Source: Escherichia coli
GTDB lineage: Bacteria; Pseudomonadota; Gammaproteobacteria; Enterobacterales; Enterobacteriaceae
Length of the DNA: 64,000 nt
Assembly: GCF_024223415.1 (NCBI RefSeq)
Contig: NZ_CP100500.1
Strand: one strand, 5' to 3'
In this document: piece by piece, positions 2,206 to 34,400 of the stretch
Position numbering within the stretch: position 1 is the stretch's first letter
How the letters are laid out: every line of letters begins with the position of its first letter
Notes under the pieces: generated by a model
Databases searched by the model: none
What the model saw: the letters and a program-made list of their open reading frames with translations, nothing else
What the model was told of the DNA's origin: nothing
Position numbers and translations under genes: made by a program

Positions 2206-3354
2206 TCACCAACGGCCGGATGAACCGCCGCCTCCTGAAGAACCGCCACCACCGCGGAAAGAATTTCTCGACGAAGAGCGAGAGTGAGCATTACGATTCC
2301 CCGTTTTCCTGTTGCTTTTTTCTCCTGATCCCAGCTTAAGATTGCCAGTAAATTTGGCCACAATGATCAGCAGAACGATGCCAGCAATGGTTATTGGACC
2401 GATAAAATGATCAATTAACCCAATAATTGTTGAGATGAATGCAATATCTTTATTACTGGCGAACACTAGGCACCATCCCACAATAATTATCAGCATCACG
2501 ACAAACAATGAATTTCGTCCTGATTCACGAACCTGCGGAGTCTTCTTTTGTTTTTTCACTTTAGCGTTTTTATTTTTTGGGGTCAGCATCATAGGAAATA
2601 CGCGGCACATATTAAAAACTACCGCGAGACGCTGCTTGCAGGTTGTTGCTAACAATAAACTAAAACAAACGACCGATACCCGCCGAATGATGACATCGTC
2701 CTGAAAGGAGAAAAACCAGACCATAGGGGTAATCATCGATATCATCCATATGCCACGCCGTGGGCGGCTGGCAAATCGCCAGAGGACAACGATGGCAACG
2801 ATCATCAGCAGTGTCCAGGCAAGACATGGCAGCGAACGTTGCGGATTAGCAAACAGATGATTGGCTAAAGCATCCAAAGGGCTAATGTTCGCTTTGATAT
2901 GGGTAAACTGTGCGATGCTTTCAATTCCGCCCGTTAATCCAGCAAAGAGATTGTTTTTTTCGAATTCTGGCTGCATATGGTAACGAACAATTTGCGCAGC
3001 TTGTTCCGGCGGCAACATCTGTTCCAGTCCATGTCCAATCTTCATTGACGCCAGCCCTTCCGGCCATACGACGAGAATTAAGATACCTTCGCCATATCGC
3101 TTCTCTCCAACGGGTTTCCAGTGATATACCCCGTATCTCTGCGAGGCTGCAAGTTTAATGTTTTTGCCCCCTGTGGTCGGCGTAACCAACACGGCCACCT
3201 GGAAGTGGTTTTGCTGCTCGAGAGTCTGTAATTGTTGAGTTAAAGCAGTTTGTTCTTCTGTCGTTAATGTCCCGGTTAAGTCAGTTACTGAAGGCCATTG
3301 TTCAGCGAATACCTGAAAACCGCATAGCATCAGAAGTAAGAGAAAAATACGCAT
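2206..3354 (-). CDS. TPM-domain membrane protein, paralog 2 (382 aa), with extra Lys-rich linker and additional hydrophobic segments; C-terminal GGGGSSGGGGSSGRW
   Basis: ORF with ATG at 3354; N-terminal signal-like MRIFLLLLMLCGFQVFA; TPM-like core (VAVLVTPTTGG...GILILVVWPEGLASMKIGHGLE); stop 5 nt upstream of paralog 1 start. Confidence 0.8.
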   Translation of the reverse strand: MRIFLLLLMLCGFQVFAEQWPSVTDLTGTLTTEEQTALTQQLQTLEQQNHFQVAVLVTPTTGGKNIKLAASQRYGVYHWKPVGEKRYGEGILILVVWPEGLASMKIGHGLEQMLPPEQAAQIVRYHMQPEFEKNNLFAGLTGGIESIAQFTHIKANISPLDALANHLFANPQRSLPCLAWTLLMIVAIVVLWRFASRPRRGIWMISMITPMVWFFSFQDDVIIRRVSVVCFSLLLATTCKQRLAVVFNMCRVFPMMLTPKNKNAKVKKQKKTPQVRESGRNSLFVVMLIIIVGWCLVFASNKDIAFISTIIGLIDHFIGPITIAGIVLLIIVAKFTGNLKLGSGEKSNRKTGNRNAHSRSSSRNSFRGGGGSSGGGGSSGRW

Positions 3355-3368
3355 ATCAATTCCTTTTG

Positions 3369-4262
3369 TTACCAGCGCCCGGAAGCGCCACCGCCACCAG
3401 ATGAACCGCCACCACCGCTGAAATTGTCATTGTTGAATGAAGAGGATGACGATGATGAATAGTGGGAGGAAGAATTGCTTCTTGTATGGCGTGATGGCTG
3501 GTTGACATCACGCATCAAATCCCGAACTTTTTTGCCGAAGGGGGTAAAAGCGATGGCGACAGCCAGGAACGGTGTGGCGAAGCAGAGTAATGTTGCGAGT
3601 ACTCCCCAGCTTCCGCTGAAGCCTGCTATAGGTAAAACAAAGGCCAGTACAATAGCTGCGAAGCAAATTACTCCCAGCGTTTTGATATATCCTCTGGCAG
3701 AAATAAACGTCAGTACTATCGCCCAGACTAACAATGCCCACCAACCGCTAAAGGGCAAAGGGTGATCGGTCGGTGTTATCGTTGCTAAATTATTCCCCGT
3801 AAGACGACTTTCAATATCGCTGATCCCCTTTTGTAAACCGCCAGCTAGGTCGCCTTTTTTAAATGCAGGAATAATACTGTTGCGAATAATTTTCCTGGAC
3901 TGTGCATCCGTAATAATACCTTCCAGCCCGTAACCGATTTCAATACGCACGGTATGATCCTGCCAGGCGACTAACAGTAGAACGCCATCATCACGGTCTT
4001 TATCACCCGGTTTCCAGCTATCGAATACCCGCGTTGCGTACTGCTCGATGGTTTCATCGCCTGTTGTTTCAACCACTAACACGACCAGTTGTGCGTGGCT
4101 TTTTTGCGTCAGGGCTTTAATCTGGTTGGTCAGGGTGTTTACTTCGCTGTTTGTTAATGTGCCCGTTAAGTCATTCACATACTTGGGTGATTCAGGTACT
4201 GGAATTTGTGTGGCAAACACAGATGAACAGAAGAAAGCCATAAGGAAGATAAAATTTCGCAT
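3369..4262 (-). CDS. TPM-domain membrane protein, paralog 3; C-terminal GGGGSSGGGGASGRW
   Basis: ORF 3369-4292; preferred ATG at 4262 (MRNFIFLMAFFCSSVFA signal-like, GGGGAAG RBS upstream); TPM core nearly identical to paralog 1 (YATRVFDSWKPGDKDRDDGVLLLVAWQDHTVRIEIGYGLEG). Confidence 0.8.
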   Translation of the reverse strand: MRNFIFLMAFFCSSVFATQIPVPESPKYVNDLTGTLTNSEVNTLTNQIKALTQKSHAQLVVLVVETTGDETIEQYATRVFDSWKPGDKDRDDGVLLLVAWQDHTVRIEIGYGLEGIITDAQSRKIIRNSIIPAFKKGDLAGGLQKGISDIESRLTGNNLATITPTDHPLPFSGWWALLVWAIVLTFISARGYIKTLGVICFAAIVLAFVLPIAGFSGSWGVLATLLCFATPFLAVAIAFTPFGKKVRDLMRDVNQPSRHTRSNSSSHYSSSSSSSFNNDNFSGGGGSSGGGGASGRW

Positions 4263-6059: not shown

Positions 6060-6759
6060 AGAGTTCCCCGCGCTAGCGGGGATAAACCGGCTGGATACCG
6101 ATCAATTCAATATCGTTTTACGAGTTCCCCGCGCTAGCGGGGATAAACCGGAATACCGATTCATAACGGCGGAAATGTGGATGAGTTCCCCGCGCTAGCG
6201 GGGATAAACCGGTTAATGATGTCAGTGGCGGTTTTCGTATCGCGAGTTCCCCGCGCTAGCGGGGATAAACCGAGTGAGGCAATCAAATGACCCGCCCGCA
6301 ATTAGAGTTCCCCGCGCCAGCGGGGATAAACCGTAAATCCCTCGCGCATCGAGTCAAATGTCGGAGAGTTCCCCGCGCCAGCGGGGATAAACCGGTCGCT
6401 GGAACGGGGCGAATAAAGAGGGGCTCGAGTTCCCCGCGCCAGCGGGGATAAACCGACAGCTCTTTCCCGTCGTTATCCAGTTGGTAAGAGTTCCCCGCGC
6501 CAGCGGGGATAAACCATATGATTCACGAATTACAGGAAACCAGCCGCCGAGTTCCCCGCGTCAGCGGGGGTAAACCGCTATCGGGGTGATTCTGCCAATG
6601 CTCAGAGTGGTGTTCCCCGCGCCAGCGGGGATAAACCGAGCGTTTGCTCCGGGTGGAATAACCCTGGCGGGTGTTCCCCGCTCCAGCGGGGATAAACCGT
6701 TTGCTGGAACCCAAAACTCAGCGCACAGGTTGTGTTCCCCGCGCCAGCGGGGATAAACC
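6060..6759 (+). CRISPR. Type I-E CRISPR array, 12 repeats of 29 bp with 11 spacers of 32 bp (61-bp period)
   Basis: Repeats GAGTTCCCCGCGC[T/C]AGCGGGGATAAACCG at 6060, 6121, 6182, 6243, 6304, 6365, 6426, 6487, 6548, 6609, 6670, 6731; distal repeats degenerate (GTG..., last base A). Confidence 0.98.
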
Positions 6760-7214
6760 ACCATATAACCCGTTATCTCTTTCTCAAGTTTTTATATTAG
6801 CTGTACTTGTAATAAGCAACATATCCACGTAACACCTCATGTTCAAAATAGTTCCCCATGCCAGATAAGTTCACAATTATCGATACAAAAAATTAAATTT
6901 AATCAAAGTGTTATTTGTATAATTCTTAAGCCGTTAAGAAATTTTAATCTATTATTTTTTTAATATTAATTAATGCCTGTTAATTTTTTCTTTAGTATAA
7001 CAGTGTATTTTTTAAGCTTGTTATTCATTGATTAAGTAATAAATCTGGAAATTTGTCTTTGTTTTGAGGCTAATGAGTGGTTTTACATAACCGCCTCTAT
7101 ACGCTGTTGATGAATAGTTCTTATGAATAAAGATATCCAGTTCATACTTTAAGTGAAAATTGATAAAGTGCGATTCGTATTGTCTTTTATTCTAAAGACA
7201 TCGAGTGTAGTTAA

Positions 7215-7352
7215 TATTCCTTGTAAAAACAGGGATAAACCGAACTAGTTAAAGTTTTTATTATGTTCCCTGCATCAGCGGGGATAAACCGGACTTGTTA
7301 TCATTTTTTAAGTTGTCGAACTTATGTTCCCCGCGCCAGCGGGGATAACCAT
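7215..7352 (+). CRISPR. Degenerate CRISPR remnant (2-3 decayed repeats, one 32-bp spacer) preceded by AT-rich leader-like region
   Basis: Repeat-like atgttccctgcatcagcggggataaaccg at 7263-7291 and atgttccccgcgccagcggggataacc at 7324-7350; partial cagggataaaccg at 7231-7243. Confidence 0.75.
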
Positions 7353-10498: not shown

Positions 10499-11284
10499 AT
10501 GTCAATCGAATCTCTCAATGCGTTCTCAATGGATTTTTTTTCCCTGAAAGGTAAAACCGCAATTGTTACCGGCGGGAATAGCGGTTTAGGCCAGGCATTT
10601 GCCATGGCGTTGGCCAAAGCAGGCGCAAATGTCTTTATTCCAAGTTTTGTCAAAGATAACGGCGAAACAAAGGAAATGATTGAAAATCAGGGTGTTGAGG
10701 TGGACTTCATGCAGGTGGATATCACCGCAGAAGGCGCGCCGCAGAAGATTATCGCTGCCTGCTGTGAGCGTTTCGGTACAGTTGATATTCTGGTTAACAA
10801 TGCCGGTATTTGTAAGCTGAATAAGGTGCTGGACTTCGGTCGTGCCGACTGGGACCCGATGATTGATGTGAACCTGACCGCCGCATTCGAGTTAAGCTAC
10901 GAAGCGGCAAAAATTATGATCCCGCAGAAAAGCGGTAAAATCATTAATATCTGTTCATTGTTCTCTTACTTAGGTGGACAATGGTCACCTGCATATTCTG
11001 CTACTAAACATGCTCTTGCCGGATTCACCAAAGCTTATTGTGATGAACTAGGTCAATATAATATTCAGGTAAATGGTATCGCCCCTGGCTATTATGCAAC
11101 AGATATTACGCTGGCGACACGCAGTAATCCAGAAACCAATCAGCGCGTTCTTGATCATATTCCGGCAAACCGTTGGGGCGATACTCAAGATTTAATGGGC
11201 GCAGCCGTATTCCTCGCAAGTCAGGCATCGAATTATGTCAACGGGCATTTATTAGTGGTCGATGGCGGTTATTTAGTGCGCTAA
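10499..11284 (+). CDS. ygcW: Short-chain dehydrogenase/reductase (SDR)
   Basis: ORF 10424-11284; preferred ATG 10499 (GGAG RBS 6 nt upstream), giving 261 aa; TGGNSGLG Rossmann motif and YxxxK. Confidence 0.9.
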   Translation: MSIESLNAFSMDFFSLKGKTAIVTGGNSGLGQAFAMALAKAGANVFIPSFVKDNGETKEMIENQGVEVDFMQVDITAEGAPQKIIAACCERFGTVDILVNNAGICKLNKVLDFGRADWDPMIDVNLTAAFELSYEAAKIMIPQKSGKIINICSLFSYLGGQWSPAYSATKHALAGFTKAYCDELGQYNIQVNGIAPGYYATDITLATRSNPETNQRVLDHIPANRWGDTQDLMGAAVFLASQASNYVNGHLLVVDGGYLVR

Positions 11285-11353
11285 CCCATAACGGTGGTTT
11301 CTGTTTTCTCTTATTAATGATTATTCCATTTTTATTATCAGGAAGGAATTACT

Positions 11354-12808
11354 ATGTCTTTATCTCGCGCAGCGATTGTCGACCAGCTAAAGGAAATTGT
11401 TGGTGCAGATCGCGTAATTACCGATGAAACAGTATTAAAGAAGAACAGTATTGACCGTTTTCGTAAATTTCCGGATATTCATGGTATTTATACTTTGCCG
11501 ATTCCGGCTGCGGTCGTAAAACTCGGTTCCACAGAACAAGTCTCCCGTGTGCTGAATTTTATGAATGCGCACAAAATTAACGGTGTGCCGCGTACCGGTG
11601 CTTCCGCCACCGAAGGTGGGCTGGAAACTGTTGTAGAAAACTCGGTGGTGCTCGACGGCTCCGCCATGAATCAAATCATTAATATTGATATTGAGAATAT
11701 GCAGGCGACGGCGCAATGTGGCGTTCCCCTGGAAGTGCTGGAAAACGCGTTGCGTGAAAAAGGTTACACCACGGGGCACTCTCCGCAGTCAAAGCCGCTG
11801 GCGCAGATGGGCGGCCTGGTAGCAACCCGCAGTATCGGGCAGTTCTCCACACTCTACGGTGCAATCGAAGATATGGTCGTTGGTCTGGAAGCAGTATTGG
11901 CTGATGGCACCGTCACACGCATTAAAAACGTGCCACGCCGCGCGGCTGGCCCGGACATTCGTCACATCATCATCGGCAACGAAGGTGCATTGTGCTATAT
12001 CACTGAAGTAACAGTGAAAATCTTTAAATTCACCCCGGAAAACAACCTCTTCTACGGCTATATCCTGGAAGACATGAAAACCGGCTTCAACATCCTGCGT
12101 GAAATCATGGTGGAAGGGTATCGTCCGTCGATCGCTCGTTTGTATGACGCTGAAGATGGCACCCAACACTTCACCCATTTTGCCGACGGAAAATGTGTGC
12201 TGATCTTTATGGCTGAAGGTAACCCTCGCATTGCGAAGGCGACGGGCGAAGGGATTGCGGAAATCGTTGCCCGCTACCCGCAATGCCAACGCGTGGACAG
12301 CAAGCTGATCGAAACCTGGTTTAACAACCTGAACTGGGGACCGGATAAAGTGGCTGCCGAACGTGTGCAGATCCTCAAAACCGGCAACATGGGCTTTACT
12401 ACCGAAGTGTCCGGCTGCTGGAGCTGCATCCACGAAATCTACGAAAGCGTTATTAACCGTATTCGTACCGAGTTCCCGCACGCCGACGACATCACTATGC
12501 TGGGCGGTCACTCCTCTCATAGCTATCAGAACGGCACCAACATGTACTTCGTCTACGACTACAACGTTGTCAACTGTAAGCCGGAAGAGGAAATCGACAA
12601 GTACCACAATCCGCTCAACAAAATCATCTGCGAAGAAACCATTCGCCTCGGCGGTTCGATGGTGCACCACCACGGTATCGGTAAACATCGCGTTCACTGG
12701 AGCAAACTGGAACACGGCAGCGCGTGGGCGTTGCTGGAAGGGCTGAAAAAGCAGTTCGATCCTAATGGCATTATGAATACGGGTACTATCTATCCGATTG
12801 AAAAATAA
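11354..12808 (+). CDS. ygcU: FAD-linked oxidoreductase (GlcD/alkyl-DHAP-synthase-like FAD-binding PCMH family)
   Basis: 484-aa ORF; FAD-binding domain-like N-terminal region; order matches K-12. Confidence 0.88.
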   Translation: MSLSRAAIVDQLKEIVGADRVITDETVLKKNSIDRFRKFPDIHGIYTLPIPAAVVKLGSTEQVSRVLNFMNAHKINGVPRTGASATEGGLETVVENSVVLDGSAMNQIINIDIENMQATAQCGVPLEVLENALREKGYTTGHSPQSKPLAQMGGLVATRSIGQFSTLYGAIEDMVVGLEAVLADGTVTRIKNVPRRAAGPDIRHIIIGNEGALCYITEVTVKIFKFTPENNLFYGYILEDMKTGFNILREIMVEGYRPSIARLYDAEDGTQHFTHFADGKCVLIFMAEGNPRIAKATGEGIAEIVARYPQCQRVDSKLIETWFNNLNWGPDKVAAERVQILKTGNMGFTTEVSGCWSCIHEIYESVINRIRTEFPHADDITMLGGHSSHSYQNGTNMYFVYDYNVVNCKPEEEIDKYHNPLNKIICEETIRLGGSMVHHHGIGKHRVHWSKLEHGSAWALLEGLKKQFDPNGIMNTGTIYPIEK

Positions 12809-14996: not shown

Positions 14997-15853
14997 ATAT
15001 CGCAATTGTGACAATAAATCAGGAGAATGCCGCAATAGCAAGCTGGCTGGCGGCACAGGATTTCAGCGGTTGTACCCTGGCGCACTGGCAGATTGAACCT
15101 CAGCCTGTAGTGGCGGAACAGGTGCTGGATGCGTTGGTGGAACAGTGGCAGCGAACGCCTGCGGACGTTGTTCTCTTTCCGCCGGGAACGTTTGGCGATG
15201 AACTGTCGACCCGGCTGGCCTGGCGTTTACATGGTGCAAGCATCTGCCAGGTGACTTCGTTAGAGATTCCAATCGTAAGCGTGCGCAAATCCCACTGGGG
15301 AAATGCGCTAACGGCGACGCTGCAAACAGAAAAACGCCCGCTATGTCTTTCCCTGGCGCGCCAGGCGGGAGCAGATAAAAATGCCACGTTGCCCTCTGGT
15401 ATTCAGCAACTGAACATAGTCCCAGGTGCGCTTCCGGACTGGCTGGTTAGCATAGAGAACCTGAAAAATGTTAGCCGCGACCCATTAGCTGAGGCCAGAC
15501 GGGTGTTGGTGGTAGGGCAGGGCGGAGAGGCAGATAACCAGGAAATCGCTATGCTGGCAGAAAAGCTGGGAGCCGAAGTGGGCTACAGTCGGGCGCGAGT
15601 GATGAACGGTGGCGTTGATGCTGAAAAAGTGATTGGTATTTCCGGACATCTGCTGGCACCTGAGGTGTGTATTGTTGTTGGCGCTTCTGGCGCAGCAGCG
15701 TTAATGGCGGGCGTGCGCAATAGCAAGTTTGTGGTGGCGATTAATCATGACGCCAGCGCTGCGGTATTTTCACAGGCAGATGTTGGCGTGGTTGATGACT
15801 GGAAAGTGGTGCTGGAGGCACTGGTGACAAACATTCACGCAGATTGCCAATAA
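14993..15853 (+). CDS. ygcQ: Electron-transfer flavoprotein alpha-subunit-like protein
   Basis: ORF 14960-15853; preferred ATG 14993 giving 286 aa; ETF-alpha-like C-terminal FAD-binding region. Confidence 0.82.
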   Translation: MNIAIVTINQENAAIASWLAAQDFSGCTLAHWQIEPQPVVAEQVLDALVEQWQRTPADVVLFPPGTFGDELSTRLAWRLHGASICQVTSLEIPIVSVRKSHWGNALTATLQTEKRPLCLSLARQAGADKNATLPSGIQQLNIVPGALPDWLVSIENLKNVSRDPLAEARRVLVVGQGGEADNQEIAMLAEKLGAEVGYSRARVMNGGVDAEKVIGISGHLLAPEVCIVVGASGAAALMAGVRNSKFVVAINHDASAAVFSQADVGVVDDWKVVLEALVTNIHADCQ

Positions 15854-16852: not shown

Positions 16853-18114
16853 CGCAGACTCCTGATAACATCGCCCGCCAGATGCCACAGGCCGTGACGA
16901 CGTAAATGACGCCAGAATAACTGGCGCAGCGGTGGAACAGGTTTATCACCCTGATCCCATAAATCGCGGGAAATATCCTGCATTAACGCAGGCCACGCCC
17001 GATACCAGCCAGGGCGTTGCAAAAGCGCCGGAACATGCTGATAACGTTGTAGAACATCCCACAGCAGGCTGCGCTCTACGTTGTGATGATAAAGCGGAAA
17101 CAGATTTTGCGGCTCGCGGTGCTGGCAGGCGCTTATCAGTGTTTGTGCCGCCGCCTGCGCGCCAGTTAGCGCCGTATCCATGCCGCGCACGGAAATTCCG
17201 GTATTGACGCAACTGCGCAACGCATCGCCTACCAGCAGCCAGCCGTTACCGGCGTATTGCACTGGCATACTGTGCAAGCCACCTTCTGGCACCAGATGCG
17301 CACCATACTCCAGTGATTCCGTGTTTTTGATAAGTGGGCGCACTGCCGGATGCGCTTTAAAGCGAGTCAGCAGCTCGCTTGCCGGAACACGACTTTGCGT
17401 AAGTGAAGAGAGCGGGCAAACAATCCCTAACGAGAGCGTTTGTTGATTAGTATAAAGAAATGCGCCGCCGGGAAAGTCATCACAGATTCCGCCGCTGAAC
17501 AGCAACGCTGCGCCTTCGTTATTCTCCAGATGAAAACGTTCTTCAATAGCGGATGTTTCCAGCGACAGCACTTCTTTGATCCCCAACGCCATCGCTTCGC
17601 CAGCAGGACGAGTCACTAATCCGTGACGCTCAGCCAGGACGCTGTTGGCACCTTCTGCCAGCACCACATAACGGGCGCGGAGAATATCGTCACCACAAAT
17701 GACACCACACACCCTGCCGTCTTCTTCATACAGAGCATCCACCGTCGCACCAGGGATGCACTCGACACCTTCTTTTTCGGCTTCGGCAACCAGCCACGGA
17801 TCGAACCGTGCACGTAATACACTCCAGGATTCACCGCCGGGCTGTAAGCTGGAAAACGTCGTTGCGCCATCCGGCGTTAACAGGGAAAGGCTTTCGTGAG
17901 TGATGAGTCGTTCAAGAGGCGCGGTCAGATGAAATTGCGGGAGGAGTTCCGCGAGTGCATGGGTATATAACCGCCCGCCGGAAAGATTTTTGCTGCCGGG
18001 GATTTCAGCGCGTTCCAGTAACAAAACGGATAAACCCGCTCGCGCGCAGCGTAACGCGCAAGCGGTGCCTGCAATACCGGCACCAATAATAATAATGTCG
18101 CAGTCGTCTTCCAT
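16843..18114 (-). CDS. ygcN: FixC-like FAD-dependent oxidoreductase (ETF-quinone oxidoreductase family)
   Basis: ORF 16843-18144; preferred ATG 18114 giving 423 aa; N-terminal dinucleotide-binding motif DIIIIGAGIAGTACA. Confidence 0.88.
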   Translation of the reverse strand: MEDDCDIIIIGAGIAGTACALRCARAGLSVLLLERAEIPGSKNLSGGRLYTHALAELLPQFHLTAPLERLITHESLSLLTPDGATTFSSLQPGGESWSVLRARFDPWLVAEAEKEGVECIPGATVDALYEEDGRVCGVICGDDILRARYVVLAEGANSVLAERHGLVTRPAGEAMALGIKEVLSLETSAIEERFHLENNEGAALLFSGGICDDFPGGAFLYTNQQTLSLGIVCPLSSLTQSRVPASELLTRFKAHPAVRPLIKNTESLEYGAHLVPEGGLHSMPVQYAGNGWLLVGDALRSCVNTGISVRGMDTALTGAQAAAQTLISACQHREPQNLFPLYHHNVERSLLWDVLQRYQHVPALLQRPGWYRAWPALMQDISRDLWDQGDKPVPPLRQLFWRHLRRHGLWHLAGDVIRSLRCL

Positions 18115-18191
18115 GTCATGCCCCAGATATCCTGAACACAACACCCTAACATAGCGTTACTTAAGGGAAATTGACCGCCGACACACTCTTA

Positions 18192-18557
18192 TCATTCGCC
18201 GCGATAGATACAACCAGCGGTGCAGGTTTCTTTTACCATCACCGCACTTAACAGCGGCACAACGGGTTTAACCTGATCCCAAATCCATTTTGCTAAAACT
18301 TCGCTGGTCGGGTTTTCCAGACCTGGAATATCATTGAGATAATGGTGATCGAGGCGGTCATAAGTTGGCTTAAACGCCGCTTTCAGTTCAGCGAAATCGA
18401 TAATCCAGCCCGTATGCGGATCGACTTCCCCGGTAATTTCCAGTCGCACCATAAAGGAATGCCCGTGCAGGCGACCACATTTATGCCCTTCCGGGACGTG
18501 TGGTAAGCGGTGAGCGGCTTCGAAGGTGAAATCTTTAAATAACGTGGTGGACATCAT
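18192..18557 (-). CDS. queD: 6-carboxy-5,6,7,8-tetrahydropterin synthase (queuosine biosynthesis)
   Basis: ORF 18192-18641; preferred start 18557 ([20 protein letters not shown]...) giving 121 aa; PTPS-family HxH motif. Confidence 0.9.
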
Positions 18558-18872
18558 AATTTCTCTACAGGACGATAAAACCGCCGTAGAGTACCGGAAA
18601 GGCTGTTTTTTCGCATTATCTAAAACGACTTTGTTGCGCAAAATCGCTGATTTATCTTAATGATTGGCTAAATTCATTTGTTTTTCATTAGGTTGGTTAA
18701 TCTATTTTGTTGTTAAAGACTATTGCTAAAACAGGTTAGTCGATTTGGTTATTAGTTATCGCTATCCCGTCTTTAATCCACACCGTTCACCCCGTTAACC
18801 TTACCTTCTCTTCTGTTTTATGGGCGCTGACAGGGCGCAGAAACAGCTTTGCTTACTGGAACATAACGACGC

Positions 18873-23456: not shown

Positions 23457-23609
23457 ATGCTAACAAAATATGCCCTTGTGGCAATCATAGTACTGTGTTG
23501 TACAGTACTGGGATTCACGCTCATGGTAGGCGACTCGTTGTGTGAGTTGAGTATCAGAGAACGTGGTATGGAGTTTAAGGCTGTTCTCGCTTACGAATCG
23601 AAGAAGTAG
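23457..23609 (+). CDS. hokX: Hok-family type I toxin peptide (50 aa, single TM helix, conserved Cys and C-terminal AYESKK-like tail)
   Basis: Own translation: [50 protein letters not shown]; AGGGAGG RBS 8 nt upstream; below the ORF-track size cutoff; symbol by position between cysH and cas3 (recall of K-12 hokX/sokX). Confidence 0.75.
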
Positions 23610-23801: not shown

Positions 23802-26501
23802 ATGCGTAAATATCCTTTAAGTTTACTGAAGGATAAAAATATTGTGACTTTCTTTGATTTCTGGGGAAAAACCCGACGCGACGAGAAAGAAGGGGGTGAC
23901 GACTATCACCTTCTTTGCTGGCATTCGCTGGATGTGGCCGCGATGGGCTATTTAATGGTTAAAAGAAATTGCTTCGGGCTGGCTGATTATTTCCGTCAAT
24001 TAGGGATTTCTGACAAGGAACAGGCGGCTCAATTTTTCGCCTGGTTGTTGTGCTGGCACGATATTGGAAAATTTGCCCGCTCATTTCAGCAACTTTACCT
24101 GCACCCACAACTCAAGGTTCCGGAAGGCGCAAGAAAGAATTACGAAAAGATCTCTCATTCAACGCTGGGCTACTGGCTGTGGCATCATTATTTAAGTGAA
24201 TGCGAAGAATTGCTTCCTGCCTCTTCACTCTCTACTCGCAAACTTAAACGTGTAATAGCGATGTGGATGCCCATGACTACCGGGCATCATGGTCGCCCGC
24301 CTGACCGTATTGATGAACTGGATAATTTTCTGCCTGAAGACAAAGCTGCCGCGCGAGATTTTCTCCTTGAAATCAAGCCACTGTTTCCGCAGCTAGAGAT
24401 CCCCGCATTCTGGGATGATGACGAGGGCGTTGAACTTATAAAACAACTTTCCTGGTATATCTCTGCAACCGTCGTACTTGCAGACTGGACAGGATCGTCA
24501 ACGCGATTTTTTCCACGCGTCGCACAGACAATGGATATTGAAGATTACTGGCAAAAGGCTTTAGTTCAGGCTCAAAACGCATTAACCGTCTTTCCTCCAA
24601 AAGCAGAAACCGCGCCTTTCACCGGAATTAATACGCTGTTTCCTTTTATTGAGAATCCGAAACCGTTACAGCAAAAGGTGCTGGATCTGGATATCAGCCA
24701 GCCAGGACCGCAGTTATTTATTCTGGAGGATGTAACCGGCGCAGGTAAAACAGAAGCGGCGCTTATCCTGGCACACAGGTTGATGGCTGCGGGTAAAGCT
24801 CAGGGTTTGTTTTTTGGCCTGCCAACAATGGCAACGGCCAATGCCATGTACGATCGGCTGGTCAAAACCTGGCTTTCTTTCTATTCGCCAGAATCCCGCC
24901 CCAGCCTGGTGCTGGCACACAGTGCCCGCACATTAATGGACCGCTTTAATGAATCACTCTGGTCCGGTGATTTAGTCGGGTCAGAAGAACCGGATGAACA
25001 AACGTTCAGTCAGGGATGTGCGGCCTGGTTTGCCGACAGTAACAAGAAGGCGTTGCTGGCTGAAATTGGCGTCGGCAAGCTGGATCAGGCGATGATGGCA
25101 GTGATGCCGTTTAAACATAATAATCTGCGGCTTCTGGGGTTGAGTAACAAAATCCTGCTGGCTGATGAGATCCACGCCTGTGACGCTTACATGTCGTACA
25201 TTCTTGAAGGGTTGATTGAGCGACAGGTGCGTGGCGGAAACAGCGTCATTTTGCTTTCTGCTACGTTATCTCAACAGCAGCGCGACAAACTTGTCGCCGC
25301 CTTTGCGCGTGGCACAGAGGGCCAGCAAGAAGCTCCGTTCCTGGAAAAGGATGATTACCCCTGGCTGACGCATGTCACGAAATCCGATGTGCATTCGCAC
25401 CGGGTAGCGACGCGCAAAGACGTTGAGCGTAGCGTGAGCGTGGGTTGGCTTCATAGCGAACAAGAATGTATTGCGCGTATCGAATCAGCGGTAAGTCAGG
25501 GGAAATGCATCGCCTGGATCCGGAATTCTGTCGATGACGCTATTAAGGTTTATCGTCAGTTACTTGCCCGCGGCGTCATTCCTGCTTCCAGCCTTTCACT
25601 TTTTCATAGCCGCTTTGCTTTTAGCGATCGCCAGCGAATTGAAACGGAAACGCTGGCACGCTTTGGTAAAAATTGTAGTTTAAAAAGATCATCTCAAGTC
25701 ATTGTTTGTACACAAGTAATTGAGCAAAGTGTGGATATTGACCTGGACGAAATGATCTCCGACCTGGCCCCCATTGATTTGCTGATCCAGCGAGCGGGGC
25801 GATTACAACGGCATATTCGCGATATTAATGGTCAGTTAAAGCGTGATGGAAAAGACGAGCGTTCCCCTCCTGAATTGCTGATTCTGGCCCCCGTCTGGGA
25901 CGACGCTCCTGGTGACGAATGGTTCGGCAGTGCCATGCGTAACAGTGCATATGTCTACCCGGATCATGGGCGAATCTGGCTGACCCAGCGTGTGCTGCGT
26001 GAGCAAGGCGTTATTCAGATGCCACACTCAGCCCGCCTTCTTATTGAATCAGTCTACGGTGAGGACGTGGTAATGCCGGACGGATTTGCCCGCAGCGAGC
26101 AGGAGCAAGTGGGCAAATATTACTGCGATCGCTCAATGGCTAAAAAGTTTGTGCTGAACTTCAGGCCCGGCTATGCCGCCAATATCAACGATTACCTTCC
26201 GGAAAAGCTGTCGACACGTCTGGCTGAGGAATCTGTTTCCCTGTGGCTGGCTAGCTGTATTAACGGCGTGGTGAAGCCTTATGCCAGCGGTGCTCACGCA
26301 TGGGAAATGAGCGTTGTCAGAGTGCGCCGAAGCTGGTGGAAAAAACATCGGGATGAGTTTTCTTTACTGGAAGGGGAAGTGTTAAGGCAGTGGTGCATTG
26401 AACAGCGGCAAGATCCGGAGATGGCAAACGTGATTTTAGTCACCGATGACGAAAGTTGCGGGTATTCGGCTACGGAAGGATTGATTGGCAAGGTTGATTG
26501 A
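23802..26501 (+). CDS. cas3: Cas3 helicase-nuclease (HD domain + SF2 helicase), type I-E
   Basis: 899-aa ORF; HD motif region (HSLDVAAMG...WHDIGK), Walker A (GAGKT) and DEAD-like (ADEIH) motifs; start ambiguous (ATG 23802 vs in-frame GTG 23844). Confidence 0.93.
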   Translation: MRKYPLSLLKDKNIVTFFDFWGKTRRDEKEGGDDYHLLCWHSLDVAAMGYLMVKRNCFGLADYFRQLGISDKEQAAQFFAWLLCWHDIGKFARSFQQLYLHPQLKVPEGARKNYEKISHSTLGYWLWHHYLSECEELLPASSLSTRKLKRVIAMWMPMTTGHHGRPPDRIDELDNFLPEDKAAARDFLLEIKPLFPQLEIPAFWDDDEGVELIKQLSWYISATVVLADWTGSSTRFFPRVAQTMDIEDYWQKALVQAQNALTVFPPKAETAPFTGINTLFPFIENPKPLQQKVLDLDISQPGPQLFILEDVTGAGKTEAALILAHRLMAAGKAQGLFFGLPTMATANAMYDRLVKTWLSFYSPESRPSLVLAHSARTLMDRFNESLWSGDLVGSEEPDEQTFSQGCAAWFADSNKKALLAEIGVGKLDQAMMAVMPFKHNNLRLLGLSNKILLADEIHACDAYMSYILEGLIERQVRGGNSVILLSATLSQQQRDKLVAAFARGTEGQQEAPFLEKDDYPWLTHVTKSDVHSHRVATRKDVERSVSVGWLHSEQECIARIESAVSQGKCIAWIRNSVDDAIKVYRQLLARGVIPASSLSLFHSRFAFSDRQRIETETLARFGKNCSLKRSSQVIVCTQVIEQSVDIDLDEMISDLAPIDLLIQRAGRLQRHIRDINGQLKRDGKDERSPPELLILAPVWDDAPGDEWFGSAMRNSAYVYPDHGRIWLTQRVLREQGVIQMPHSARLLIESVYGEDVVMPDGFARSEQEQVGKYYCDRSMAKKFVLNFRPGYAANINDYLPEKLSTRLAEESVSLWLASCINGVVKPYASGAHAWEMSVVRVRRSWWKKHRDEFSLLEGEVLRQWCIEQRQDPEMANVILVTDDESCGYSATEGLIGKVD

Positions 26502-26598
26502 GATGTCTGCGACAGGACTCTCTGAATAGTTGATATACAGAAAAGGATGGAAAGATGGACAACCGACCTGGGATGGTCTTTTTTACGAGAGGATGCGT

Positions 26599-28161
26599 AT
26601 GAACTCGTTTTCACTTCTGACAACCTCGTGGTTGCCCGTTCGTTTTAAAGACGGAACGACAGGCAAACTGGCACCAGTCGATCTGGCTGATGAAAATGTT
26701 GTCGATATCGCTGCGCCGCGGGCAGATCTCCAGGGTGCGGCATGGCAGTTTTTGCTGGGGCTACTACAAACCAGCTTCGCGCCAAAAGATCATCGTCGTT
26801 GGGATGATATCTGGGAAGACGGACTGGAATCTGAAAAGCTACGGGAAGCATTGCTGTCATTAGAACACGCTTTCCAGTTTGGGCCAGATTCCCCTTCATT
26901 TATGCAGGATTTCGAGGCGCTCACGGGAGATAAAGTTCAGATCGCTTCGTTACTGCCTGAGATTCCCGGCGCTCAAACAACGAAGTTTAATAAAGACCAT
27001 TTTATCAAGCGTGGTGTAACGGAATACCTGTGTCCTCATTGTTCAGCGTTAGCCCTGTTCTCCCTACAGTTAAATGCACCGTCAGGCGGCAAAGGCTATC
27101 GCACCGGTTTACGCGGCGGTGGGCCGATGACCACTCTTATTGAATTACAGGAATATCAGGGCAATCAACAAACACCCTTATGGCGCAAACTGTGGCTCAA
27201 TGTGATGCCGCAGGATGAAGCCGACTTACCGCTACCCAAAAAATTTGACGATCTGATTTTCCCCTGGCTTGGCCCGACGCGTACCAGCGAACTGGCCGGT
27301 GCGGTGGTAACCGATGATCAGGTTAATAAACTCCAGGCGTACTGGGGAATGCCACGGCGTATTCGTATTGATTTTAATACCACGACAGTCGGCAACTGCG
27401 ATATTTGCGGCGAGCAGAACGACGCGCTCCTGAACCTGATGACGACCAAAAATTACGGCGCTAACTATGCCATGTGGCAGCATCCCTTAACGCCTTACCG
27501 TATACCACTTAAAGAGGGTGGCGAGTTTTACTCCGTTAAACCACAACCGGGCGGTTTAATCTGGCGCGACTGGTTAGGCCTTATCGAAACGGGTAAATCA
27601 GAAAACAATACGGAACTTCCCGCGCTGGTGGTGAAACTCTTTAATGCCAGCAGTCTGAAACAGGCAAAAGTGGGCCTATGGGGATTTGGTTATGATTTCG
27701 ACAATATGAAAGCGCGCTGTTGGTACGAACACCATTTCCCGCTGCTGCTCAATAAAAAAGAAGGCCAGATACCGAAACTGCGGCTGGCTGCGCAAACGGC
27801 TTCACGGATTCTGAGTCTGTTACGGAGTGCATTGAAAGAAGCGTGGTTCTCCGATCCAAAAGGTGCACGGGGTGATTTCAGTTTTGTGGATATCGACTTC
27901 TGGAACAAAACTCAGCATCGCTTCCTGAGGTTAGTGCGCCAAATTGAAGAAGGTCAGGATCCAGATGAATTACTCGGCAAATGGCAAAAGGAAATTTGGT
28001 TATTTGCGCGTCAGGATTTTGACGAGCGTGTATTCACCAATCCTTATGAGCCCGTTGATTTGAAACGCGTCATGACCGCACGCAAGAAATATTTTACAAC
28101 ATCGGCGGAGAAGCAAAATGCTAAAGCCGCCAGGGAGAAAAAGCAGGAGGCTGCTGAATGA
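26599..28161 (+). CDS. casA: Cascade large subunit Cse1/CasA (Cas8e)
   Basis: ORF 26530-28161; preferred ATG 26599 (GAGAGG RBS); position after cas3 and size ~520 aa; sequence differs from K-12 CasA as I recall it. Confidence 0.85.
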   Translation: MNSFSLLTTSWLPVRFKDGTTGKLAPVDLADENVVDIAAPRADLQGAAWQFLLGLLQTSFAPKDHRRWDDIWEDGLESEKLREALLSLEHAFQFGPDSPSFMQDFEALTGDKVQIASLLPEIPGAQTTKFNKDHFIKRGVTEYLCPHCSALALFSLQLNAPSGGKGYRTGLRGGGPMTTLIELQEYQGNQQTPLWRKLWLNVMPQDEADLPLPKKFDDLIFPWLGPTRTSELAGAVVTDDQVNKLQAYWGMPRRIRIDFNTTTVGNCDICGEQNDALLNLMTTKNYGANYAMWQHPLTPYRIPLKEGGEFYSVKPQPGGLIWRDWLGLIETGKSENNTELPALVVKLFNASSLKQAKVGLWGFGYDFDNMKARCWYEHHFPLLLNKKEGQIPKLRLAAQTASRILSLLRSALKEAWFSDPKGARGDFSFVDIDFWNKTQHRFLRLVRQIEEGQDPDELLGKWQKEIWLFARQDFDERVFTNPYEPVDLKRVMTARKKYFTTSAEKQNAKAAREKKQEAAE

Positions 28162-28694
28162 GTATTGTAAAAGAGGAGCACAAAGCCACGCTGCGTAAAT
28201 GGCACGAAGAGTTGCAGGCTAAACGCGGCAATCGTGCCAGTCTGCGGCGTAGCACAACGGTTAATGATGTTTGCTTGTCAGAAGGGTTTCGTTCTCTGCT
28301 GATGCAGACCCACACTTTGTGGAAAATTGAAGCACAAGAGTGGCGTTTTACCGCACTGGCGCTGGTCGCCGCAGTTAGCGCCAATGTAAAAGCCATTGAT
28401 GAACGGCAGCCTTTTGCCGCGCAGCTGGCGGCGGTAATGTCGGAGGGGCGTTTTACTCGCCTGTCGGCAGTAAAAACGCCGGATGATTTACTGCGTCAGT
28501 TACGTCGCGCGGTCAAATTATTAAACGGTTCCGTCAATCTTATCTCTTTGGCAGAAGATATTTTCCGCTGGTGTCAGGAGAGCGACGACCTGCTCAATCA
28601 TCACCGCCGCCAGCAGCGGCCAACCGAATTTATCCGTATCCGCTGGGCACTGGAATATTACCAGGCTGGCGACGCCGATAACGAACAAAATTAA
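28158..28694 (+). CDS. casB: Cascade small subunit Cse2/CasB
   Basis: 178-aa ORF overlapping casA stop by 4 nt; operon position. Confidence 0.85.
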   Translation: MSIVKEEHKATLRKWHEELQAKRGNRASLRRSTTVNDVCLSEGFRSLLMQTHTLWKIEAQEWRFTALALVAAVSANVKAIDERQPFAAQLAAVMSEGRFTRLSAVKTPDDLLRQLRRAVKLLNGSVNLISLAEDIFRWCQESDDLLNHHRRQQRPTEFIRIRWALEYYQAGDADNEQN

Positions 28695-28708
28695 TAAAGG
28701 ACTATCTC

Positions 28709-29764
28709 ATGACAACATTTATTCAGCTTCATTTGTTAACCGCTTACCCTGCTGCCAACCTTAACCGTGATGATACTGGTGCGCCAAAAACTGTGGTACT
28801 GGGTGGTGCAACGCGTCTGCGCGTTTCCTCACAAAGTCTGAAACGTGCGTGGCGCACTTCTGCACTTTTTGAACAGGCACTGGCGGGCCATATTGGTATT
28901 CGCAGTGGGCGAATTGCGCGTGAGGCGGCAACTATCCTGATTGAGAAAGGAATCGAAGAGAAAAAAGCCATCGAATGGGCGGCAAAAATTGCGGATTATC
29001 TTGGGAAAGCTAAAAACGACAAAAAACCAAAAGATCCGCTCACTAACGCCGAAACTGAACAATTAGTTCATATCAGCCCGGCAGAATTTGACGCCGTAAA
29101 AGCGCTGGCCCATCAACTGGCAGAAGAAAAGCGCGCGCCAATAGAGGAAGATCTCGCGTTGTTACGTAAAGACCGTATAGCGGTAGATATCGCTATGTTT
29201 GGTCGTATGCTGGCGAATAAACCTGAGTTTAATGTTGAAGCCGCCTGCCAGGTCGCGCATGCGTTTGGTGTCAGTGAAACGATTGTCGAAGATGATTTTT
29301 TCACCGCCGTTGATGATTTGCGCCAGGCCTCTGAAGATGCCGGTGCCGGGCATCTCGGAGAAACCGGATTCGGTTCAGCACTTTTCTACACCTATATCTG
29401 CATTGATAAAGATCTGCTGGTAGAAAACCTCGGCGGTGACGAAGCGTTAGCTAATCAGACCATACGCGCTTTTACGGAAGCCGCACTTAAAGTCTCCCCA
29501 ACCGGCAAACAGAACAGCTTTGCCAGCCGTGCCTACGCCTCCTGGGCGCTGGCAGAAAAAGGCACCGAACAACCGCGTTCTCTGGCGGCGGCTTTCTATG
29601 AACCCATTAATGGCACCCGGCAGTTAGATGTGGCGGTGCAGCGTATTACAACGCTTCGCGAAAACATGAATACGGTCTACGAACAGAAGACCGAATGCGT
29701 AAGTTTTGACGTGATGAACAAACAGGGAAGCATGAAGGACGTGCTGGACTTTATCTGCGCGTAA
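28709..29764 (+). CDS. casC: Cascade backbone subunit Cas7e/CasC
   Basis: 351-aa ORF; N-terminus MTTFIQLHLLTAYPAANLNRDDTGAPK typical of Cas7e. Confidence 0.9.
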   Translation: MTTFIQLHLLTAYPAANLNRDDTGAPKTVVLGGATRLRVSSQSLKRAWRTSALFEQALAGHIGIRSGRIAREAATILIEKGIEEKKAIEWAAKIADYLGKAKNDKKPKDPLTNAETEQLVHISPAEFDAVKALAHQLAEEKRAPIEEDLALLRKDRIAVDIAMFGRMLANKPEFNVEAACQVAHAFGVSETIVEDDFFTAVDDLRQASEDAGAGHLGETGFGSALFYTYICIDKDLLVENLGGDEALANQTIRAFTEAALKVSPTGKQNSFASRAYASWALAEKGTEQPRSLAAAFYEPINGTRQLDVAVQRITTLRENMNTVYEQKTECVSFDVMNKQGSMKDVLDFICA

Positions 29765-29774
29765 GGGGCGGCTT

Positions 29775-30521
29775 ATGAGCCAATATCTGATTTTTCAGCT
29801 TCATGGGCCGATGGCATCCTGGGGCGTCGATGCTCCCGGCGAAGTGCGTCATACCCATGAACTGCCTTCGCGCTCAGCATTGCTGGGGTTACTGGCTGCC
29901 GGGGTAGGGATTCGGCGTGATGATACCGAACGATTAAACGCGTTTAACCGCCACTATTCACTGGTGGTTTGCGCCAGCCGTAACCCGCGCTGGGCACGGG
30001 ATTATCACACGGTCCAGATGCCAAAAGAGGTGCGTAAATCGCGTTATTTCAGCCGTCGCGAAGAGTTGAGCGATCCTGATCTTCTGAGCGCAATTATCTC
30101 CCGGCGCGACTACTACACCGATGCCTGGTGGATGGTGGCGGTGGCAACAACCCCCGATGCGCCTTACAGCCTTGAACAGTTGCAGGAAGGTTTACGTCAT
30201 CCGGTTTTTCCGCTTTATCTGGGGCGAAAAAGTCATCCGCTGGCATTACCACTCGCGCCGTTACTGATCGAAGGCAACGCGTCTGATGCCTTATGTAACG
30301 CATACCAACAGTATCAGGATAGTTTCCGCGAACTGAAAGTCTCACTCCCGAAACTTCAGGATGAATGCTGGTGGGAAGGGAAACACGACGGCCTGGTCGC
30401 GAGCAAAATATTACGTCGCCGGGATGTTCCTTTGAATCGTCAGCAGTGGCTGTTTGGGGAACGCACCGTCAATCAGGGGCCGTGGCTCAGCAAGGAGGAA
30501 CCATGTACCTCTCAAGAATAA
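29775..30521 (+). CDS. casD: Cascade subunit Cas5e/CasD
   Basis: 248-aa ORF; N-terminus MSQYLIFQLHGPMASWG typical of Cas5e; 3' end overlaps casE start by 19 nt. Confidence 0.88.
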   Translation: MSQYLIFQLHGPMASWGVDAPGEVRHTHELPSRSALLGLLAAGVGIRRDDTERLNAFNRHYSLVVCASRNPRWARDYHTVQMPKEVRKSRYFSRREELSDPDLLSAIISRRDYYTDAWWMVAVATTPDAPYSLEQLQEGLRHPVFPLYLGRKSHPLALPLAPLLIEGNASDALCNAYQQYQDSFRELKVSLPKLQDECWWEGKHDGLVASKILRRRDVPLNRQQWLFGERTVNQGPWLSKEEPCTSQE

Positions 30522-31149
30522 CCTTACATACCGGCCAGCTTTCGCCTGCGCAGTTGTTGCATCTGGTGGATCGCGGTGAATATGTGATGCATCAGTGGCT
30601 GTGGGATCTCTTCCCAGGCGGCAAAGAAAGGCAATTTCTTTATCGTCGGGAAGAACTCCAGGGCGCGTTTCGCTTTTTTGTCCTGTCGCAGGAACGCCCG
30701 GCGGAAAGTGAAATGTTCACCATCGAATGCCGACCATTTGCGTCGGAGTTGCGTACCGGACAATCGCTTTGTTTCAACCTGCGGGCGAATCCAACAATCT
30801 GTAAAGCGGGCAAGCGCCACGATCTGCTGATGGAAGCGAAACGGCAGGTGAGGGGGCAGGCGGAAGGAAGTGATGTCTGGTTGCATCAACAACAGGCAGC
30901 GCTGGACTGGCTGGCAGCGCAGGGGGAGAGAAGCGGTTTTACACTGCTGGATACCTCGGTTGATGCCTACCGACAACAGCAACTCCGGCGGGAAAACTCC
31001 CGACAACTGATCCAGTTCAGTAGCGTGGATTATACGGGGATGCTTACGGTCACCGATCCTGGGTTATTTCTGCAACGTCTGAGCCAGGGGTATGGCAAAA
31101 GCCGCGCGTTCGGCTGTGGTCTGATGCTGATCAAACCCGGAGCAGAGGC

Positions 31150-31153
<4 letters not shown>
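30503..31153 (+). CDS. casE: Cas6e/CasE crRNA endoribonuclease
   Basis: ORF-track call starts 30365; preferred ATG 30503 (MYLSRITLHTG..., AAGGAGG RBS), ~216 aa; C-terminal G-rich loop GYGKSRAFGCGLM. Confidence 0.9.
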
Positions 31154-32363
<1,210 letters not shown>

Positions 32364-32459
32364 GTTATGTGTTCTTTAAAAATAAGGAAATGTTTGAATT
32401 TAGTTGGTAGATTGTTGATGTGGAATAAATTTGTTTAAAAACAGATATGTATGCTTAGT
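32364..32459 (+). promoter_or_regulatory. CRISPR leader for cas-adjacent array
   Basis: AT-rich 96 bp between cas2 stop and first repeat; shares ...ttagttggtagattgt... with the other leader. Confidence 0.7.
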
Positions 32460-33342
32460 GTGTTCCCCGCGCCAGCGGGGATAAACCGGTCAAATCGGTT
32501 ACCTTAACCTGTTGAATGTGGTGTTCCCCGCGCCAGCGGGGATAAACCGAACGGCTACGGCACCGAGGTGACAAACCAGATGTGTTCCCCGCGCCAGCGG
32601 GGATAAACCGAACTCCAGGATATTGCAAACCGCATAGTGGATGTGTTCCCCGCGCCAGCGGGGATAAACCGCCGTTGCGCTGGCATCGGGTGTACCTGTT
32701 GTGGTGTTCCCCGCGCCAGCGGGGATAAACCGCCGTTGCGCTGGCATCGGGTGTACCTGTTGTGGTGTTCCCCGCGCCAGCGGGGATAAACCGGGCTTAC
32801 ACGCCACCATGGCATCAAGAACGATGTGTTCCCCGCGCCAGCGGGGATAAACCGATTACGACTTCCGCACGCACCCACCGTTTGTAGTGTTCCCCGCGCC
32901 AGCGGGGATAAACCGTTGGGCTAGGAGGAAGAGCATCATTAACATGGGTGTTCCCCGCGCCAGCGGGGATAAACCTGAGGCGGCTAAACCGTCGCGCACA
33001 CGAGCGACGTGTTCCCCGCGCCAGCGGGGATAAACCGCGTACTGCTTACTCCGTCATCGATGTATGAGTGTGTTCCCCGCGCCAGCGGGGATAAACCGTA
33101 CGTGTCGCCGTTACAGATTTCAGTCTGTTAGTGTTCCCCGCGCCAGCGGGGATAAACCGGGCGTCCAGTGATGCTTTCTGGTGCTCGAATAGTGTTCCCC
33201 GCGCCAGCGGGGATAAACCGCACGATTTTATGTGCCGCGTTGAGGCGTGGGCGTGTTCCCCGCGCCAGCGGGGATAAACCGGGCGCACTGGATGCGATGA
33301 TGGATATCACTTAGAATTCCCCGCCCCTGCGGTAGAACACCC
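32460..33342 (+). CRISPR. Type I-E CRISPR array, 14 repeats of 29 bp plus degenerate terminal repeat; 14 spacers of 32 bp
   Basis: GTGTTCCCCGCGCCAGCGGGGATAAACCG every 61 bp from 32460 to 33253; degenerate repeat gaattccccgcccctgcggtagaacac at 33314-33342. Confidence 0.98.
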
Positions 33343-33362
33343 AGCTCCCATTTTCCAACCCA

Positions 33363-34400
33363 TCAAGACGCCTTCGCCAGCTCCTTCACCAACGGTAGCA
33401 TTATCCGCATAACATCACGGCAGCGACGTTCTATTCTTCCAGGAAGTGCCTTATCAATATGCTGTTGATTATCCAGTCTTACGTCATGCCAGCTATTTCC
33501 CGCAGGGAATGCGGCTGTTTTTGCGCGTTGCTGATAACCATCCTTATTCCCAAGATTCCAGTTAGTCGCTTCCACCGAAAGTACAGCAATGCCCGCTTTG
33601 TCGAATATTTCTGCGTCATTACAACACCCAGTGCCTTTCGGATAATTTTTATTCAAACCCGGATTGGTCGTTGCGGCTATTCCGTGACTGCGCGCAATTG
33701 CCAGCGCCCTGTCGCGCGTTAATTTCCTTACTGCCTCAGGGGTTTTTACACCGCTGTTGAAATACAATTTATCGCCAACAATTAAGTTATCGAGATTAAT
33801 CACCAGCAGCGTATTTTTCTTTTCGGTGTCACTCATCCGCTTGAGTAAATTCTCAGCGCCTAATTTCCCTTCCTCTTCGCCGCTGGTCGCCACAAATCGA
33901 ATACCATACTCGGTAGGCGTATTTTTCAGGCGTTCTGCCAGTTCCAGCATGACACCTAAACCTGCGGCGTTATCATCCATTCCTTGTAACGTCAGCCCGC
34001 CGAGATTGGCATCGGCGTCAGCATCGCTCAGCGGGGCGTAAGTATCCAGATGCGCCATAATGATGATCTGCTGCGGCGCTTTGCCTTCATGAGCGGCAAT
34101 CACCGTACTTCCCGTCACGTTATGCCAGCTCTTACGATTATCGCGGGCGGTATAAATATACCGACTATTAAATGTCCGAATATCACTGCGATAACCCATT
34201 TGCTGAAACTGTTGGCGAATATAATCGGCAGATAACATTTCTGCAGGAGTTCCGGTCATGCGTCCCGGAAAGAAAGTAGCAATATGTCGTGCCTGAGTAT
34301 TAGCAAAATCGCCAGGTTTAGGTGACGAGGCGTGTACGGGGAGAATAAAGCATACGCCGAGCGCCAGGGCAGCGGTACGGTGGCGCAATGCGGAAAACAT
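33363..34400 (-). CDS. iap: Alkaline phosphatase isozyme conversion aminopeptidase
   Basis: 345-aa ORF with signal peptide; M28-family peptidase-like; position adjacent to CRISPR array as in K-12. Confidence 0.9.
   Translation of the reverse strand: MFSALRHRTAALALGVCFILPVHASSPKPGDFANTQARHIATFFPGRMTGTPAEMLSADYIRQQFQQMGYRSDIRTFNSRYIYTARDNRKSWHNVTGSTVIAAHEGKAPQQIIIMAHLDTYAPLSDADADANLGGLTLQGMDDNAAGLGVMLELAERLKNTPTEYGIRFVATSGEEEGKLGAENLLKRMSDTEKKNTLLVINLDNLIVGDKLYFNSGVKTPEAVRKLTRDRALAIARSHGIAATTNPGLNKNYPKGTGCCNDAEIFDKAGIAVLSVEATNWNLGNKDGYQQRAKTAAFPAGNSWHDVRLDNQQHIDKALPGRIERRCRDVMRIMLPLVKELAKAS

Follow-up and report, generated by a model that had tools for sequence, protein, structure and literature searches.

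Tandem duplication of a repeat-spacer unit in the iap-proximal type I-E CRISPR array of an Escherichia coli strain and its probable origin by misalignment of adjacent repeats

Introduction

Duplications of repeat-spacer units inside CRISPR arrays have been described in surveys of natural arrays. In the SpacerPlacer survey, about 3% of spacers were found to be duplication candidates, and simple duplications accounted for 86% of the non-canonical spacer events, with reacquisitions at about 1% (PMC11472070). In the same work, deletions and duplications are both ascribed to replication misalignment, duplicated spacers are expected to be lost faster owing to the added homology, the single unit is the commonest size of a deletion (37%), and recombination between arrays is considered rare (PMC11472070). 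Kupczok et al. (2015) reported that replicated spacers represent 4.7% and 4.6% of the unique spacers in the two E. coli type I-E arrays and occasionally inferred recombination between arrays in this species (PMC4524480). The integration reporter plasmids of Diez-Villasenor et al. were built so that the duplication or deletion of CRISPR-spacer units would not be scored as background (PMC3737337).

Here, we describe an exact tandem duplication in the iap-proximal type I-E array encoded by a 64,000-nucleotide stretch of E. coli DNA (contig NZ_CP100500.1), referred to below as the window. It does not differ substantively from the published tandem duplications of repeat-spacer units (PMC11472070, PMC4524480). 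As in those cases, an exact internal copy is located beside its parent, against the leader-end polarity of arrays, and internal block deletions are present in the same lineage; the species and the type of array are those to which the 4.6-4.7% figure applies. The spacer of the window and the strain itself are absent from the collections searched. The duplication thus belongs to a class of events that is already known and well described.

Results

The array located between cas2e and iap (Table 1) is the usual iap-proximal array of the E. coli type I-E system (CRISPR2.1 of PMC3737337), with which it shares the 29-bp repeat, the 32-nt spacers, the 61-bp period, and the cas2-iap position. Its repeat variant corresponds to the 'CRISPR-A' variant of Diez-Villasenor et al. 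(GTGTTCC... in the orientation of the window; PMC3737337). The partially palindromic 29-bp repeat of the E. coli consensus, GTGTTCCCCGCGCCAGCGGGGATAAACCG, in which a CCCCGC/GCGGGG hairpin is predicted, is present in an exact form in 13 of the 14 full repeats, the remaining one having T as its last base; the spacers have a uniform length of 32 nt. The flanks of the array are base-for-base the same as those of RefSeq E. coli genomes annotated in the order cas6e/cas1e/cas2e - CRISPR - iap - cysD. A scan of positions 32300-33450 against Rfam indicated no family at the gathering score, the models of CRISPR direct repeats this short being weak.

The leader and the cas genes of the window represent a variant other than that of K-12. 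The 100-bp sequence that leads up to the first repeat is identical across the five related strains compared and clearly diverged from the K-12 leader, and the K-12 casA gave no nucleotide match at the position tested. The terminal 'anchor' spacer of K-12 is one base away from that of the window. At the nucleotide level, the cas genes of the window are the same as the genes annotated by RefSeq in strain NCTC10444, with the exception of one SNP in casA (position 26941), which is derived and private to the window: codon 115 is ATC (Ile), as compared to GTC (Val) in all six relatives described below and in one outgroup.

Table 1. Coordinates of CRISPR-associated features in the window
Feature	Coordinates	Strand	Remarks
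Second type I-E array	6061-6760	+	between queE and ygcE; 12 repeats; spacers a3-a5 of the fullest array in the clone are absent
Junction repeat of the a3-a5 deletion	6183-6211		in the second array
Two-repeat remnant	7263-7352		500 bp downstream of the second array
Type I-E cas operon	23802-32363	+	intact, no internal stops
cas3	23802-26501	+	
casA	26599-28161	+	
casB	28158-28694	+	
cas7e	28709-29764	+	
cas5e	29775-30521	+	
cas6e	30503-31153	+	
cas1e	31150-32073	+	
cas2e	32070-32363	+	
Leader	32364-32459	+	AT-rich, 96 bp, from cas2 stop to first repeat
Whole iap-proximal type I-E array	32460-33342	+	14 full repeats, 14 spacers including the duplicate, degenerate terminal repeat
Full repeats (n = 14)	32460-33281	+	all at 61-bp spacing
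Copy 1 of the duplicated unit	32643-32703	+	repeat 4 (32643-32671) and spacer 4 (32672-32703); in phase with the 61-bp period of the array
Copy 2 of the duplicated unit	32704-32764	+	repeat 5 (32704-32732) and spacer 5 (32733-32764); same letters as spacer 4
Exact period-61 tract	32643-32793	+	151 bp, 2.5 units, next repeat included
Junction of the spacer 8 deletion (del8)	32916-32976	+	loss of one repeat together with ancestral spacer 8 (GCGTTTCTGGCGGGGGTAGGGAACGCCCAGAA)
Degenerate terminal repeat	33314-33342	+	after the last spacer
iap	33363-34400	-	downstream of the array

Direct string comparison within the window indicates that two consecutive 61-bp units of the array are identical; in each unit, the repeat GTGTTCCCCGCGCCAGCGGGGATAAACCG precedes the 32-nt spacer CCGTTGCGCTGGCATCGGGTGTACCTGTTGTG. 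The first-pass annotation had claimed that these two spacers, numbered by it 4 and 5, are the same and that one repeat-spacer unit is exactly duplicated; both claims hold, and the numbering is correct when counted from the leader/cas2 end. The tract of exact 61-bp periodicity stops short of spacer 3 and of spacer 6. As the probability of a chance identity of two unrelated 32-nt spacers is about 4^-32, the duplication cannot be attributed to chance. The copy is exact and head-to-tail, and its boundaries are in pre-existing direct repeats, which is the form that misalignment of repeats would give. The crossover is located within one of the 29-bp repeats, a finer placement being impossible.

Among the 5426 complete E. 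coli genomes searched, not one has two copies of this spacer. No exact match to the spacer was detected in metagenome contigs or in a set comprising one genome per GTDB species, and exact look-ups of the products of two minus-strand ORFs that span the duplicated region gave no match.

The duplicated spacer contains a quasi-palindrome, CGGGUGUACCUG, at positions 32687-32698 and 32748-32759. In the predicted fold of the pre-crRNA (z-score -3.3), the two copies of the spacer form base pairs with one another over the intervening repeat, and the helix between them comes from the quasi-palindrome GGUGUACC, paired via G-U wobbles. The predicted helix is probably a curiosity, and a functional role for it is unsupported.

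A single copy of the duplicated spacer was found in four of the 5426 complete E. coli genomes (SCU-316, NCTC10444, O78 strain 3, and NCTC9112), in each case inside a CRISPR array. The comparison with related strains, which the first-pass annotation had recommended, places the spacer in these four at the same position as in the window, behind the same spacers 1-3. The four strains, as well as strains KV7 and GPEC1446, exhibit 100.0% identity (at one decimal) to the window in the 12.4 kb of cas DNA upstream of the array. The window and these six RefSeq complete genomes, in all of which the full 64-kb equivalent was compared, belong to one clone.

The window differs from the six relatives by 8-19 SNPs over 61,718 bp of non-array DNA, and the SNPs of the seven strains are almost all strain-private, which results in a star-like pattern. 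Four SNPs are private to the window (3846, 18357, 26941, and 35994). Three of them could be polarised with the use of K-12 and OZ197100 as outgroups, position 3846 being in DNA that is absent from both, and in each case the window has the derived base; hence, there is no support for a clade made up of the six relatives to the exclusion of the window. The derived base at site 5964 is common to SCU-316, NCTC10444, KV7, O78 strain 3, and GPEC1446, and since it is the sole informative SNP that structures the clone, the clone root is weakly supported. As compared to the six relatives, the window contains no private indel in the 61.7 kb, which is indicative of a clean consensus.

In the annotation of the culture-collection strain NCTC10444, rpoS and ygcN are each interrupted by an internal stop, and pphB by a frameshift (11119-12111, 15093-15748, and 17533-18804 in the coordinates of the extracted pieces), and the window has none of these lesions.

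The states of both type I-E arrays in the clone are given in Table 2, where the spacers of the iap-proximal array are numbered according to its fullest form (1-14), which is identical in SCU-316 and NCTC10444, and those of the queE-ygcE array according to the fullest form of the latter (a1-a14).

Table 2. Spacer content of the two type I-E arrays in seven strains of the clone
Strain	iap-proximal array	queE-ygcE array
Window	1,2,3,4,4,5,6,7,9-14 (dup4, del8)	without a3-a5
SCU-316	1-14	apparently without a1-a4; sequence poor there
NCTC10444	1-14	without a5-a6
NCTC9112	1-11,11,12-14 (dup11)	without a1
O78 strain 3	without 2 and 11-12	all 14 spacers and an exact tandem duplication of a9 (GTCGCTGGAACGG...)
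KV7	without 4-6	without a4
GPEC1446	without 3-12	without a1-a6

As compared to the inferred ancestor, the iap-proximal array of the window has undergone two private events: unit 4 was duplicated, and one unit, that with spacer 8, was lost. Among the six relatives, spacer 8 is missing only from GPEC1446, while in the window spacer 7 directly precedes the variant repeat ending in CCT (32948-32976). The retention of this variant repeat indicates that the crossover of the deletion is in the repeat, upstream of its last base. Since one unit was gained and one was lost, the window array is as long as the 14-unit array of the ancestor, the full repeats spanning 822 bp. No misalignment that would explain both changes by a single event could be found, the two sites being three units apart, and they were taken as two events. 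A second duplication in the iap-proximal array of the clone is the exact tandem duplication of the spacer 11 unit (TACGTGTCGCC...) in NCTC9112, whose array occupies positions 2289-3171 of the extracted sequence. In total, five deletions and two duplications were identified in this array in the clone.

The repeats of the queE-ygcE array are mixed (GAGTTCC...CTAGC, GAGTTCC...CCAGC, and GTGTTCC...), and the total for this array in the clone is at least five deletions and one duplication. In SCU-316, the repeats and spacers of this array contain many indels of 1-3 nt, such as extra bases in a T run and missing bases in G runs, which look like consensus errors of long-read sequencing, and the RefSeq annotation of this strain has no CRISPR feature there. 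Altogether, in the 14 arrays of the seven strains, a single unit was exactly duplicated in tandem on three independent occasions, and the internal deletions number at least ten. No clear case of a gain at the leader end was found in these 14 arrays.

Four P2-like Escherichia phages have, in their tail-fibre gene beside the baseplate J/W/I genes, a sequence that the duplicated spacer matches at 29 of 32 positions. The three bases before this protospacer are AAG, which is the canonical PAM of type I-E systems (the PAM was examined for the duplicated spacer only). The same 29/32 match is present in prophage genes annotated as 'phage tail protein' in 428 of the 5426 E. coli genomes (about 8%), and none of the four spacer-carrying strains is among these 428. 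The phage match with the AAG PAM, together with the lack of a match in the carriers, indicates a normal phage-derived spacer that is not self-targeting in the relatives of the window strain. A search of plasmids for the protospacer gave chance-level partial matches only, in unrelated taxa.

Discussion

Results of our analysis make it very probable that the duplication is genuine, private to the window strain, and formed by misalignment of adjacent identical repeats. In such a process, two neighbouring identical 29-bp CRISPR repeats, 61 bp apart, would misalign, either by slippage of the nascent strand in replication or in the course of an unequal sister-chromosome exchange. With the register of the misalignment reversed, units would be deleted, which is the dominant type of change in the clone, and the Cas1-Cas2 adaptation machinery would be unnecessary for either outcome. 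The duplication itself is exact, the close relatives have the single-copy state, and similar events are recurrent in the clone, where whole-unit deletions accompany the duplications as the reciprocal outcome. The first-pass annotation had proposed slippage or recombination between repeats as the source of the identical pair, or else an error of assembly, and the single copy in four close relatives, together with the two further duplications and many internal deletions in the clone, supports the former proposal. Its description of such duplications as uncommon was overstated, considering their frequency of about 3% overall and about 4.6-4.7% in E. coli type I-E arrays (PMC11472070, PMC4524480), as well as their presence in three of the 14 arrays of the clone.

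The presence of one copy in four relatives and the star-like pattern of SNPs indicate that the two-copy state is derived and most likely private to the window strain, although the root of the clone is weakly resolved. Should this root be located on the branch of the window, the ancestor would have had two copies, one of which was then lost once in the lineage leading to the other strains.

Concerning the route of the misalignment, we lean towards RecA-independent slippage and not RecA-dependent exchange, which the sequence cannot tell apart, because the homology of the repeats is only 29 bp and their spacing is close. According to the work of Lovett (2004), as it is cited in PMC11472070, RecA-independent slipped misalignment in E. 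coli takes place at short and close direct repeats. The 29-bp repeats located 61 bp apart are likewise of this kind, and products of both expansion and deletion are likewise present in the clone; the independence of RecA would follow here by analogy.

Among other explanations, an assembly artefact, although improbable, deserves attention in the first place. In this case, the organism would have a single copy of the unit (or the full 1-14 array), and the repeat graph would have been mis-traversed, with spacer 4 used twice and spacer 8 skipped. The duplication is known from the window sequence alone, CRISPR arrays are sometimes badly assembled, as exemplified by the second array of SCU-316, and the array length equal to that of the ancestral 14-unit form of SCU-316 and NCTC10444, with one unit gained and one lost, would fit a mis-resolved path. 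However, the zero net change in length is unremarkable, since a single unit is the commonest size of a deletion (37%; PMC11472070). Moreover, the junction of spacer 4, repeat, and spacer 4 would require reads containing it to enter a k-mer or overlap assembly, an exact insertion of 61 bp is atypical of long-read consensus errors, the consensus of the window is free of private indels, and the independently assembled genomes of two other strains of the clone (NCTC9112 and O78 strain 3) contain exact duplications of this kind.

It is very unlikely that the two copies result from two successive Cas1-Cas2 acquisitions of one protospacer at the leader end, for instance by primed adaptation, and were later buried under spacers 3, 2, and 1. 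Hot protospacers are known to be acquired repeatedly, and the plausible protospacer with the canonical AAG PAM indicates that the spacer is a genuinely acquired one. Nevertheless, all four spacer-carrying relatives share the later spacers 1-3 and yet have one copy, so that an ancestral two-copy state would have to be lost in every one of them, and a clear recent acquisition is missing anywhere in the clone. The proportions of reacquisitions and duplications among non-canonical events (about 1% vs. 86%; PMC11472070) also argue against this explanation. Equally doubtful is an unequal crossover with a segment of a homologous array transferred from outside, since, although recombination between arrays has occasionally been inferred in E. 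coli (PMC4524480), it is reported to be rare (PMC11472070), both copies and all flanking units are those of the array of the clone itself, and neither a foreign spacer nor a SNP tract is present beside the duplication.

The duplication formed by misalignment of repeats is expected to be effectively neutral and unstable. Type I-E arrays are transcribed from the leader, and the transcript is cleaved by Cas6e in each repeat. Two identical 61-nt crRNAs are therefore expected, and the guide would take two of the 14 crRNA slots of the array. At the DNA level, the local perfect homology was increased by the duplication from 29 to 90 bp, and thus the tract should be prone to collapse or further expansion. 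The type I-E system of E. coli is normally silenced by H-NS, and because of this silencing and of the lack of recent adaptation in the clone, the phenotypic effect of the duplication is probably negligible. We regard as scarcely credible the possibility that the duplication has been kept because the doubled dose of crRNA improves Cascade loading against the P2-like prophage family. If this were true, the amplification of guide copy number by repeat slippage would be a selectable tuning of CRISPR immunity.

Beyond bookkeeping, the duplication matters little. In this near-clonal set of E. coli strains (8-19 SNPs per 61.7 kb), both type I-E arrays change by slippage-type gain or loss of whole units alone. 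The pattern fits the published view that the arrays of E. coli erode rather than adapt and that deletions and duplications of units far outpace point mutation. The combination of dup4 and del8 is a strain-specific marker for subtyping within the clone, and tools for CRISPR typing and ancestral reconstruction need to cope with duplicates.

Further upstream in the window, a gene encoding a 50-aa toxin of the Hok/Gef family is located between cysH and cas3 (23457-23609, + strand). In K-12, the sole annotation in the cysH-cas3 interval is the sokX small RNA, and in GPEC1446, an IS421 insertion is present between the Hok/Gef-family toxin gene and cas3.
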